This document shows, in pieces, positions 8,498 through 59,522 of a stretch of 64,000 nt of DNA. Within the stretch, counting starts at the first letter, position 1. Every line of letters begins with the position of its first letter. Made by a program: the position numbers and the translations under genes. The notes beneath the pieces are model-generated. The model was not told the DNA's origin. It ran no database searches and was given only the letters and a program-made list of their open reading frames with translations. Source of the DNA: Candidatus Hadarchaeales archaeon (GTDB lineage Archaea > Hadarchaeota > Hadarchaeia > Hadarchaeales > JAWBSP01); NCBI GenBank assembly GCA_038842485.1, contig JAWBSP010000001.1:1-64000 (forward strand). The letters are read 5' to 3'.

Positions 8498-9551
8498 GAT
8501 ATGCGGGCTGAAGCTACATAATCCCATCCTGACTGCAGCGGGTCCACCGATGCAAGATGCCTCGGCTCTCCTTGCAGCTGCCGAGAACGGGGCAGGTGCT
8601 TTGGTCACGAATACTATCACAAGAAATCCCTTCCGCTGCTACCCATACCTGTGCAAGCAGAGGGATGGCATTTTAAGTGCAACTTTATCAAGTTCCCTCA
8701 CCCCCCAGACTTGGGCAGGCGAAATTGCGAAGGCCAAGAAAACGGGGATCCCGCTGATAGCGAATGTAGGGTTTACTCTTGAGGATTTGCGGGAGATCGT
8801 TCCCTTGGTGTTGGAGGCAGGGGCGGATGCAGTGGAGGTTTCACCAGCACGTTCTCTTACGCTCTCACAGTTCAGGGAGATGGTGAGGGGGGCACGCAAA
8901 ATCGTGTCGACACCTCTCATCTTCAAGTTGAACCTTCAGATGGGGAACCTGCCAGAATTCGCCCAGGCGGCTCAGCAGGAGGGAGCGGATGCTCTCACAG
9001 TGGTGGACGCAGTTGGACCCTGCGTGGCTGTAAGGGAGGATGGCTTTTCCATGCTTGGAAGCGTCCAAGGAGAGGGGTGGTTGTCTGGTCCCCCTATAAA
9101 ACCCATAGCACTCAGGTGTTTGGCGGAGGTTTGTTCCTCCGTCACCCTGCCGGTTTTAGGTGCAGGAGGGATTACTGACGGCCGTGATGCCGCTGAGTTC
9201 ATCATGATGGGTGCATGGGCGGTGGAGGTGAACTCGGCTGCCATTCTAAGAGGGCCAAAGGTTTACGGGCAGATCGTTAGGGAACTGCTACAGTTCATGC
9301 AGATGAAAGGGCACGAAAGCGTGGAGGGGATGAGGGGAATTGCACTTAGACATTTGCCTAAGACTCCCTTTACCTCACCCAAGGTTCCGGAAATGTTTTC
9401 CTCGCGATGCAATAACTGTGGCCTGTGCATTCGTTTCTGCCTTCGGGGTGCGATGAAACCTGCAGGCAAAGTCCCCAAGCTGGAGGCGAGCAGATGCGAT
9501 GGTTGCGGTCTTTGTATTTCGGTGTGCCCCACAGGTGCTCTTCGGCTATAA
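8478..9551 (+). CDS. Dihydroorotate/dihydropyrimidine dehydrogenase (PreA-like) FMN barrel with C-terminal 2x[4Fe-4S], divergent
   Basis: GLKLHNPILTAAGP, LSGPPIKP, GAGGI, AEFIMMGA; CxxCxxCxxxC twice at the C-terminus. Confidence 0.8.
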   Translation: MVVLSVEICGLKLHNPILTAAGPPMQDASALLAAAENGAGALVTNTITRNPFRCYPYLCKQRDGILSATLSSSLTPQTWAGEIAKAKKTGIPLIANVGFTLEDLREIVPLVLEAGADAVEVSPARSLTLSQFREMVRGARKIVSTPLIFKLNLQMGNLPEFAQAAQQEGADALTVVDAVGPCVAVREDGFSMLGSVQGEGWLSGPPIKPIALRCLAEVCSSVTLPVLGAGGITDGRDAAEFIMMGAWAVEVNSAAILRGPKVYGQIVRELLQFMQMKGHESVEGMRGIALRHLPKTPFTSPKVPEMFSSRCNNCGLCIRFCLRGAMKPAGKVPKLEASRCDGCGLCISVCPTGALRL

Positions 9552-9595
9552 AAATTATTATCTCTTCAGCACATATGACATCACAAACGAATTTC

Positions 9596-9604
9596 GGTTA
9601 AATG
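9596..9604 (+). promoter_or_regulatory. Putative TATA box for the structured RNA
   Basis: TTAAAT at 9598-9603, about 25 nt upstream of the first helix. Confidence 0.4.
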
Positions 9605-9624
9605 ATATCTGGATAAGAAAAGTC

Positions 9625-9856
9625 GGCGGGGACGGAAGCCCGCAAGTGTGGTAGAACCCAAGCCTACGGGCAAGGGGGAACCACCGAAAAACGAGGGTCA
9701 AAAACCTCGGAAGGCGGTGGGTAAGCGCCGGGAGGTTCGGCGCAAAACCACAAGTGCGGGAAAAAGACCCCGGACGCGAAAAAGCAGAAGTCGCAGGGAA
9801 GGTGGTCGAGCTTTCCCGGACTTCTGTCGAGTAGCGGAGGGGTCGAAGTCCCCGCC
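9625..9856 (+). ncRNA. Unidentified large structured ncRNA (~235 nt)
   Basis: Closing helix GGCGGGGAC 9625-33 / GTCCCCGCC 9848-56; at least 8 nested helices; cUACGg tetraloop; A-rich linkers; T7 tract immediately downstream. Confidence 0.75.
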
Positions 9857-9858
9857 AA

Positions 9859-9868
9859 TTTTTTTATA
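9859..9868 (+). terminator. Oligo-T terminator overlapping the probable polB TATA box
   Basis: TTTTTTT 9859-65 right after the closing helix; TTTATA 9863-68 lies about 30 nt before the polB ATG. Confidence 0.5.
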
Positions 9869-9898
9869 GCAGATTTTTGGAATCTCACCGAGTTTGCA

Positions 9899-12298
9899 AT
9901 GCGTGGCTACCTTCTCGATGCGTGGGAGGAAGGGTCCACCGTACGGTTGTTCGTGAAAACGCACGATCGAGTCGTGCTGGCTGTTGAGGAAAATTTCCTA
10001 CCCTACTTCTACGCGCTTCCCTCGACGGAGAAAGATTTAAAAACCCTGGAGAGGGTTGAGCTCACAGAAAAAGGCAGGATTATACGGCCGGTCTCCGTCC
10101 ATTTGGAGAGGAAAAAGCTAAAAGGAGAACCAGTGGAGGCAGCTAAGATTTTGGTTGAGAAGCAAGCGGACATCGAGCCACTGAGGCATTTTATAAGGGA
10201 TGCCATGAAACTCCCTCTCTTTGAGTACGACCTACCCCTCCTCCGCAGGTATTTCATCCTACGCGGTCTCTGGCCTTTCTGCGGTGTGGAGCTGAAGGGA
10301 AAGGAGGAAGCCGGAATCTTTAAGCTCCTCTCTCCACCTAGACCCGTGGATCTTCCAGAACCAGAGCTCAACATACTGGCTTTTGACATCGAGGTCTACA
10401 ATCCGGCTGGTTCCCCCCGTGTGGAGGTAGATCCCGTGATAATGATTAGCCTTGCGGACACAAAGGGCCTCAGAAAGGTTCTGACTTGGAAGGGCTCGGC
10501 GGGACTTGACTTTGTGGAGGAGTTAGGAGGAGAAAAAGAGATGCTGGCGAGGTTTATCGAGCTGGTGAGAGAAAGGGATCCGGACATTTTGGTGGGTTAC
10601 AACACTGATCTCTTTGACTTTCCCTATCTCAGGAGGAGAGCGGAGCTCCTGGGAGTAAAGCTGACGCTTGGTAGAGAGGGCTCTGAACCCTTGGCTAGGA
10701 GGAGGAGATTCGCTTCTGCCACTCGGGTGGAGGGAAGGGTGCACTGTGATCTTTACGCCATGGTGAACTTCCTTGCCCTTACCGGAGCCATAAGGTTGAT
10801 TCACTACACTCTTGGTGAAGTGTATAAGTATCTGACCGGGAAGGAAAAACCTGAGTTAGAATTCACGGAGATTGCAGAGGCTTGGGATGGGGGTGGGGAA
10901 AAGTACAGAAAGTTGCTGGAGTACTCCATGGGCGATGCTCAGGCGGCACTGGAACTCGCGCAGGAGCTCCTCCCCCTCTTCCTGCAGCTGGCGAAGGTCA
11001 TCGGACAGAGTTTGTTTGATGTCTGCAGAATGACCCCCGGTCAAATGGTTGAGTGGCTTCTGATTAGAGAGGCGCACGCAAGGGGGGAGCTGGTTCCTCC
11101 CAGGCCTATTGCCGAGGAGATGGAGGAGAGGGAGGAGGAGACGTACGTGGGGGCATACGTCATGGAACCCGAAAAAGGCATGCATGAGGATCTGGTAGTT
11201 TTTGATTTCCGCTCGCTTTACCCCTCGATCATCATTACGCACCGCATAGACCCTTTCAACCTCAACTGCTCATGTTGCGGGAAAGGTGAGGGCACCATTG
11301 TACCGGAGCTAGGCTACCGCTTTTGTTCAAGAAAGGAGGGCTTCATCGTACCCGTGCTACAGAGGTTGGTGGAGGAACGGTTGAAATTGAAGGCCCAACT
11401 CAAGGGATTAGAGAAAGATTCTGGGGAGTACAGACTGCTCTTCGCCAGACAGAACGCTCTGAAAATCATTACTAACAGTTTCTACGGTATGTTGGGTTTT
11501 TCTAGGGCACGTTGGTATTCCAAGGAGTGCGCTGAAAGCATAACTAGCTTTGGCCGGTGCTACATCCACAAAACCATTGACATGGCTCGGAACTTTGGAT
11601 TTAAGGTGATTTACGGCGACACGGATTCCTTGCATTGTAAACTGGATGGAAAGACGAGAGAAGATGCGTCAAAGTTCTTGAGGCAGGTAAACGAGGAGCT
11701 TCCGGGGATGATTGAGCTTGAGCTTGAGGGATTCTATCCACGCGGTGTGTATCTCACCAAGAAGCGCTACGCCCTAATTGACGAAAAGGGAAGGCTGACC
11801 GTTAAGGGGCTGGAGTTCGTGAGGAGAGACTGGGCCGGGATAGCCAAGAAGACGCAGGAAAAGGTGCTAGATGCCATCCTTCGGGAAGGATCCCCCTCAA
11901 AGGCCTTTGAAATCATCCACAAGACCATCCAAGAGCTGCGCGAGCAGAAGATTCCCCTCGAGGACCTCATCATATACACCCAGCTCAAGATGTCGCTTGA
12001 CGAATACAAAGCCGTTGGACCGCATGTGGCAGTGGCAAGGAAGCTTAGGGAGAGAGGGAAACCAGTCGAGCCTGGAATGATGATTGCCTATGTTGAGGCA
12101 AAGGGGGTGGGAAGCATAAGCGACAGAGCCTTTTCCGTAGAGGAGTTTAAGGAAAAGAAGCTGAAGTATGATCCAGATTACTACATCAACCATCAGGTTC
12201 TGCCGGCCGTGATGAGAATCATGGAGGCACTGGGGTACACGGAGGAGGACCTGAGGTCCGAGGGAAAACAGGTAAGTTTGGGTAAATTCTTGAAATGA
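9899..12298 (+). CDS. polB: Family B DNA polymerase
   Basis: ExoI FDIE, ExoII YNTDLFD, DFRSLYPSII, KIITNSFYG, YGDTDS, KKRY, GLEFVRRDW; C-terminal PIP box QVSLGKF. Confidence 0.97.
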   Translation: MRGYLLDAWEEGSTVRLFVKTHDRVVLAVEENFLPYFYALPSTEKDLKTLERVELTEKGRIIRPVSVHLERKKLKGEPVEAAKILVEKQADIEPLRHFIRDAMKLPLFEYDLPLLRRYFILRGLWPFCGVELKGKEEAGIFKLLSPPRPVDLPEPELNILAFDIEVYNPAGSPRVEVDPVIMISLADTKGLRKVLTWKGSAGLDFVEELGGEKEMLARFIELVRERDPDILVGYNTDLFDFPYLRRRAELLGVKLTLGREGSEPLARRRRFASATRVEGRVHCDLYAMVNFLALTGAIRLIHYTLGEVYKYLTGKEKPELEFTEIAEAWDGGGEKYRKLLEYSMGDAQAALELAQELLPLFLQLAKVIGQSLFDVCRMTPGQMVEWLLIREAHARGELVPPRPIAEEMEEREEETYVGAYVMEPEKGMHEDLVVFDFRSLYPSIIITHRIDPFNLNCSCCGKGEGTIVPELGYRFCSRKEGFIVPVLQRLVEERLKLKAQLKGLEKDSGEYRLLFARQNALKIITNSFYGMLGFSRARWYSKECAESITSFGRCYIHKTIDMARNFGFKVIYGDTDSLHCKLDGKTREDASKFLRQVNEELPGMIELELEGFYPRGVYLTKKRYALIDEKGRLTVKGLEFVRRDWAGIAKKTQEKVLDAILREGSPSKAFEIIHKTIQELREQKIPLEDLIIYTQLKMSLDEYKAVGPHVAVARKLRERGKPVEPGMMIAYVEAKGVGSISDRAFSVEEFKEKKLKYDPDYYINHQVLPAVMRIMEALGYTEEDLRSEGKQVSLGKFLK

Positions 12299-59371: not shown

Positions 59372-59446
59372 TGCCCCGGGCGGGATTTGAACCCGCGGCG
59401 GTGGCTCGAGAGGCCACTATGTTTGACCGGGCTACACCACCGGGGC
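59372..59446 (-). tRNA. tRNA-Glu(CTC)
   Basis: Acceptor GCCCCGG/CCGGGGC, anticodon arm GTGGC-CTCTCGA-GCCAC, T loop TTCAAAT; CCA not encoded. Confidence 0.96.
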
Positions 59447-59447
59447 A

Positions 59448-59522
59448 CGGGCCCGGAGGGATTCGAACCCTCGATCTGCGGCTTAGGACGCCGCCGCCCT
59501 ATCCTGGCTAGGCCACGGGCCC
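59448..59522 (-). tRNA. tRNA-Arg(CCT)
   Basis: Acceptor GGGCCCG/CGGGCCC, anticodon arm GCGGC-GTCCTAA-GCCGC, T loop TTCGAAT. Confidence 0.94.

Follow-up and report, generated by a model that had tools for sequence, protein, structure and literature searches.

Large structured non-coding RNAs such as OLE, ROOL, GOLLD and raiA of bacteria were recognized by covariation, are much more structured than typical regulators, are abundant and restricted to particular lineages, and had no known function at the time of their discovery. ROOL, GOLLD and OLE form RNA-only assemblies (bioRxiv 10.1101/2024.12.08.627333). Here, we analyzed a candidate of this kind in a 64,000-nt stretch of DNA (the window) from a Hadarchaeales archaeon (GCA_038842485.1, contig JAWBSP010000001.1). 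The locus encodes a 233-nt, tightly folded RNA that is found in 51 of 66 Hadarchaeota genomes and is represented at high depth in an environmental RNA library. It shows no sequence or covariance-model (CM) similarity to the bacterial families mentioned above, which are contained in Rfam, and differs from them in being archaeal, shorter, and present as several paralogs per genome.

Searches with Rfam 15 at gathering thresholds detected only two tRNAs in the window, at 59372-59522 on the minus strand (61.1 and 59.6 bits), which aragorn calls tRNA-Arg and tRNA-Glu with no spacer between them. A permissive scan of 9500-9950 (E <= 10) gave two meaningless matches far below their thresholds (mir-2110, 19.7 bits against 90; Vax2os1_2, 8.1 bits against 55), and a scan of five homologous loci at E <= 1 gave none. 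The locus thus also lacks a match to HgcC, which is probably a G+C-rich orphan RNA of hyperthermophilic Euryarchaeota, and to box C/D or H/ACA sRNAs, whose conserved boxes were likewise not apparent when the alignment was inspected by eye. Archaeal RNase P RNA, including the minimal type T (RF00373, RF02357), is also a multi-junction RNA of 200-300 nt closed by P1 with conserved purine-rich junctions. However, its conserved P4 regions, reported as lacking in the preliminary description of the locus, were not seen by us either. The canonical housekeeping RNAs are encoded elsewhere in the same genome (0.94 Mb, 27 contigs, 89% complete; hereafter G000, with contigs numbered C1, C2, etc.), namely RNase P RNA at C3:26295-26576 (226.1 bits, compared to only 33.9 bits with the type T model), SRP RNA (RF01857) at C4:36458-36761 (149.9 bits), and 5S rRNA (RF00001) at C4:54435-54555 (97.5 bits). 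The 5S rRNA gene is directly followed by tRNA-Asp and tRNA-Lys genes on the same strand (C4:54252-54555, minus strand), in what looks like a 5S-tRNA cluster away from any 16S/23S gene seen here. Literature searches, which did not extend to supplementary transcript tables, revealed no report of a Hadarchaeota ncRNA, and the one passage of PMC12918454 that mentions Hadarchaeota says nothing about this RNA. Thus, the RNA appears to represent a previously undescribed family unrelated to any described kind, as far as this can be judged for an RNA of unknown function.

Structure and covariation of the RNA

All helices listed in the preliminary description are present in the sequence, although the RNA is 233 nt rather than ~235 nt long. 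Its main inference, a standalone large ncRNA that possibly represents a new archaeal class and is less likely a polB leader, is supported by the lack of an Rfam hit, the existence of covarying homologs, the coverage by RNA-library contigs, the presence of RNase P and SRP RNAs elsewhere in the genome, and the absence of a MITE-like multiplicity.

Features of the RNA locus and its flanks in the window. Basis refers to the analyses described in the text.
Coordinates	Strand	Feature	Basis
9569..9580	+	Possible upstream promoter element (GCACATATGACA, imperfect palindrome around CATATG), at the position where other families carry TGGA(A/G)ATAT(C/T)TCCA	Aligned upstream regions; any role is inferred
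9598..9605	+	TATA-like box (TTAAATGA), 20-27 nt before the RNA 5' end	Sequence
9625..9857	+	RNA gene (233 nt)	R1 match over 9625-9857 (215.6 bits); head-to-tail joints in RNA contigs place the ends at 9625/9626 and 9857
9625..9633	+	P1, 5' strand (pairs with 9848-9856)	9 pairs, 3 with changes on both sides, 99.3% of cells paired
9639..9760	+	Domain 1: long stem (9639-9652/9747-9760) with an AG/AG internal loop, opening into a four-way junction with three hairpins (9657-9676 with UACG loop; 9681-9720 with A-rich internal loops; 9725-9743)	Helices 2-6 all have 3-9 pairs with compensatory changes
9766..9844	+	Domain 2: stem (9766-9771/9839-9844), tandem GA/GA, 3-bp stem, loop-E-like internal loop (GAAAAA 9778-9783 opposite CGAGUA 9828-9833), stem (9784-9792/9819-9827), distal hairpin (GGGAA/TTCCC)	GAAA and GAGUA at least 92% conserved across long and short forms; the loop-E/bulged-G reading is from sequence alone
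9802..9810	+	Distal loop GUGGUCGAG, found in long forms only	Invariant in 33 of 33 long copies
9848..9856	+	P1, 3' strand, followed by the unpaired A9857	Sequence, fold and covariation
9859..9865	+	T7 run, likely the archaeal oligo-T terminator of the RNA gene; overlaps TTTTTTTATAG (9859-9869), which could serve as the polB TATA box	Sequence; the polB promoter role is inferred
9899..12298	+	polB, neighboring gene (family-B DNA polymerase)	Pfam DNA_pol_B (1.9e-74) and DNA_pol_B_exo1

The unconstrained minimum free energy (MFE) fold of 9620-9862 reproduces this nesting at -130.1 kcal/mol, whereas 200 dinucleotide shuffles gave a mean of -85.1 (sd 4.75; z = -9.47) and none of them folded as well. 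The same fold is the predicted MFE at 37, 60 and 80 C. Since the minus strand is also structured (z = -8.67), folding energy alone does not reveal the strand. The plus strand is instead indicated by G-U pairs that would be C-A on the other strand (e.g., UG in 11 of 33 sequences at pair 70-103 and GU in 14 of 33 at pair 174-215), by the promoter, and by the T-run.

RNAalifold predicted 64 base pairs in an alignment of 33 copies, 41 of which show changes on both sides that keep the pair. With this structure, 96.6% of cells are standard pairs, compared to 83.1% for shuffled partners (0 of 500 shuffles reach the observed value) and 35-46% when partners are slid by 1-3 columns, and the covariation score is 0.463 compared to 0.07-0.09 for slid partners. 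Each of the 10 helices carries at least 3 compensatory pairs. The genomes are related and the structure was derived from the same sequences, so that these figures overstate the number of independent events, but the margin is very large. The 11 strongest APC-corrected mutual-information pairs among 97 distinct sequences are all predicted pairs, and no pseudoknot emerged. No reading frame is open in all homologs, and the low U content of the RNA (10%) explains the chance ORFs.

The RNA has a three-way architecture in which P1 is joined to the two domains by a purine-rich junction (GGAAG, AAAAAG, CGAA). Across both long and short forms, 33 unpaired columns are at least 90% conserved, nearly all of them A or G in junctions and internal loops. 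A search for base-pairing targets of the invariant loop was uninformative, as GTGGTCGAG occurs 24 times in the genome on either strand, which fits a common codon string.

Distribution, paralogs and genomic context

A blastn search with the 273-nt stretch revealed full-length matches of 67-89% identity, and some partial ones, in 25 of 41 related genomes. A CM built from 33 copies (R1) detected the RNA in 51 of 65 genomes of the order and 51 of 66 of the phylum. By family (numbered here f1 to f5), the RNA was found in 2 of 2 f1 genomes plus G000, 6 of 6 in f2, 40 of 46 in f3, 1 of 1 in f4 and 1 of 9 in f5, and in 20 of 25 genomes that are at least 90% complete. A broader model (R2) gave 0 hits in the 85 genomes sampled from other archaeal families, although these larger searches were run with stricter filters. 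G000 itself scores 215.6 bits with R1 and 174.9 bits with R2, but matches by construction because it is among the sequences used to build the models; independent members had first been found by blastn. In addition, 26 of 80 metagenome loci picked by a pattern are true hits, in contrast to 0 of 9 pattern matches in viral contigs.

Five good genomes (90-95% complete) lack the RNA even at E <= 1. In two of them, G008 (C2:138695-141042) and G029 (C4:46190-48514), the oxidoreductase and GTPase genes that flank the RNA elsewhere are directly adjacent, 53 and 75 nt apart, indicating that the RNA is truly absent there, whereas G017 of the same genus has two copies. Its loss in two clades shows that the RNA is not indispensable to all Hadarchaeales, and this genus offers a natural presence/absence pair for comparative work.

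Genomes carry 1-6 copies. Families f1 and f2 have one copy, whereas most f3 genomes have two long copies (~231 nt) plus one or two shorter ones (197-225 nt), which keep the core but replace the invariant distal hairpin with a short variable stem. In several genomes a short copy lies about 87 nt upstream of a long one. Among 52 long-copy loci, a few of which may be the same place fetched twice, 17 have polB as the next gene on the same strand, 30-60 nt after the RNA, and 16 have a convergent FAD-dependent oxidoreductase gene ending about 7 nt after the RNA, 12 of which also have a divergent DRG-type GTPase gene upstream. Others lie near NifU/IscS or ribosomal protein S8e and ScpA/B. Short copies are found in the GTPase/oxidoreductase slot or between glutamate dehydrogenase and a convergent glutamine synthetase gene, a conserved slot next to nitrogen-assimilation genes in several genomes. 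In the window, the ORF upstream of the RNA, which ends at 9551, encodes a dihydroorotate-dehydrogenase-like protein with a 4Fe-4S tail. Pfam scans of 40 neighboring ORFs revealed only unrelated housekeeping genes or no family, and no transposase, integrase or recurring uncharacterized partner, so that the context gives no functional lead. One divergent copy (143 bits with R2; 1501-1722 of locus L080) is located on a 6.5-kb contig of genome G022 (C30) among four ORFs with no Pfam family, with a second, partial copy at the contig start (C30:5-155), and could indicate an island or an extrachromosomal element carrying the RNA.

Transcription of the RNA gene

The RNA gene has its own promoter. In 91 distinct copies with sufficient flank, 84 of 143 TATA-like hexamer hits start at -32..-29, and an A/T-rich octamer is present in 58 of 61 long and 29 of 30 short copies. 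TTTT follows within 10 nt in 57 of 61 long and 18 of 30 short copies. In the window the TATA-like box is 4 nt closer to the RNA. Moreover, a palindrome near -58..-45, roughly TGGA(A/G)ATAT(C/T)TCCA, lies upstream of BRE/TATA in 31 of 61 long but only 1 of 30 short copies, in both the polB and the GTPase contexts, and may be a transcription-factor site specific to the long RNA genes. The sequence GGARATATYTCC with at most 1 mismatch is enriched over its control in 5 genomes (17-46 against 5-12 per strand). However, none of the 12 additional sites inspected showed the arrangement of the palindrome upstream of a BRE/TATA box, about 10 of 12 lie inside predicted open reading frames, and no regulon was found. 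Likewise, the RNase P, SRP and tRNA genes of G000 show no shared element. Because the T7 run is part of TTTTTTTATAG, 30-40 nt before the polB start codon, the terminator of a heavily transcribed RNA gene may double as the polB TATA box, raising the possibility of promoter occlusion or coupling.

One RNA run (X13), a sediment metatranscriptome analyzed as assembled contigs, shares words with the stretch. Contigs without mismatches to the RNA over 9668-9727 and 9703-9850 have word depths of 2,528 and 1,510, compared to 3.8 for the single, 92%-identical contig on the upstream ORF. No RNA contigs cover polB and most of the upstream ORF in this run, and three DNA runs are flat at about 5-24. Contig depth from a single run is a crude measure that sums relatives and cannot show strand or true ends, but the contrast within one library argues for a very abundant RNA rather than DNA carry-over.

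Two joints in the RNA contigs link 9857 back to 9626 (one extra C, depth 113) and to 9625 (one extra G, depth 20), placing the ends exactly where P1 predicts. They reflect either circular molecules or head-to-tail template switching by reverse transcriptase on an abundant RNA, which cannot be separated with contigs, and real circles are possible but somewhat less likely than not. Circularization of stable RNAs, such as C/D box sRNAs, rRNA and tRNA-intron circles and omega-RNA circles, is common in thermophilic archaea (PMC9014305, PMC12558985). However, as judged by eye, no bulge-helix-bulge (BHB) site can form here, because the 3' flank is A/C followed by oligo-T in nearly all copies and cannot pair with the 5' end of the RNA, and the promoter leaves no 5' leader. 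The Pab1020/Rnl3-type RNA ligase that circularizes small archaeal RNAs (PMC9014305) was not found in any of 65 Hadarchaeales genomes, although it was detected in the control genomes. RtcB is present in G000 (C7:42920-44227) but needs 5'-OH and 3'-P ends, which a primary transcript lacks. Any small-RNA circularization in this order would thus need another enzyme or route.

Possible roles of the RNA

Taken together, the RNA very likely constitutes a genuine new family of trans-acting stable RNAs, found only in Hadarchaeales among the genomes searched. We tentatively favor that it forms the core of a particle rather than regulating polB, with the near-invariant purine-rich junctions, the loop-E-like motif and the invariant GUGGUCGAG loop as contact surfaces for one or more unknown proteins or for other copies of the RNA. 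P1 would bring the two ends together, which protects them and may allow ligation into a circle. No partner protein is known, however, and the dispensability of the RNA in some lineages is unusual for the core of an essential machine.

A ribozyme, in which the invariant junction nucleotides form an active site and the head-to-tail joints reflect self-processing or ligation, is less likely. Conservation is concentrated in multi-helix junctions rather than in helices, as in catalytic RNAs, and circles, if they exist, need a route other than BHB processing or Rnl3. On the other hand, the promoter is positioned such that transcription should start at or next to the first P1 base and the T-run follows the last, so that no cleavage is needed to generate the ends. 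Moreover, Rfam searches revealed no known self-cleaving motif, no pseudoknot signal was found, and the joints can equally arise from template switching. Similarly doubtful is a decoy that titrates a nucleic-acid-binding protein, as 6S RNA and CsrB do, with paralogs tuning the dose and the upstream palindrome making its level conditional. The high word depth, the several paralogs per genome, the palindrome of the long copies, which suggests regulated expression, and the dispensability in some lineages, as is often seen for regulators, would fit such a role. However, there are no repeated short binding motifs of the CsrB kind, no candidate protein has been found, and the single compact multi-junction fold with long-range conservation is more elaborate than known sponges. 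An unlikely but more far-reaching possibility is that Hadarchaeota carry a class of very abundant, possibly covalently circular RNAs with long and short forms that is either a new natural ribozyme or the core of a new ribonucleoprotein or RNA-only particle, made without the BHB endonuclease pathway and the Rnl3 ligase.

A cis-acting leader or riboswitch controlling polB by termination or read-through at the T-run is largely refuted by context. Besides the 17 of 52 loci followed by polB, the RNA lies upstream of polB in 4 of 9 polB loci fetched independently, and the T-run overlaps a possible polB TATA box. In contrast, 16 of 52 copies are followed by a convergent gene and others lie in further contexts, the congener G001 keeps the RNA and the upstream genes but has no polB downstream, genomes lacking the RNA still carry polB-type housekeeping with a gene order that closes up cleanly, and the RNA has its own promoter. 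It is therefore not an obligatory polB leader.

A divergent or expanded form of a universal RNA is also not supported. The topology resembles that of 5S rRNA, with a ~9-bp closing helix, a three-way junction, one arm with a loop-E-like purine-rich internal loop, and a stand-alone gene with a strong promoter and a T-run, and the short motifs GAAC, GGAAG and AUAAGC may occur in the same order as in 5S rRNA. However, the RNA is twice as long and has a four-way junction in one arm, a canonical 121-nt 5S gene is present in G000 and in 53 of 65 genomes of the order, and local alignment to the genome's own 5S scores 32, compared to 24.3 +/- 4.1 for shuffles with a maximum of 43. A mobile or virus-derived repeat is not supported either, since, despite up to 6 matches in one genome, some at contig ends, and the divergent G022 copy, G000 has one copy, copies occupy the same syntenic slots across families, and neither transposases or integrases among the neighbors scanned nor true hits among the 9 viral-contig pattern matches were found.

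New large RNA classes supported by covariation are rare, and very few are known from Archaea beyond rRNA, tRNA, RNase P, SRP and the guide sRNAs. The RNA is thermostable by prediction, and two Hadarchaeota enrichment cultures are in print (PMC10811742, PMC11297162). A possible circular form, in a lineage without the usual small-RNA circularizing ligase, would be a second open question. With an elaborate conserved fold, its own conserved promoter, several paralogs and word depths of thousands in an RNA library, this RNA has the profile that the known RNA machines showed before their function was found.
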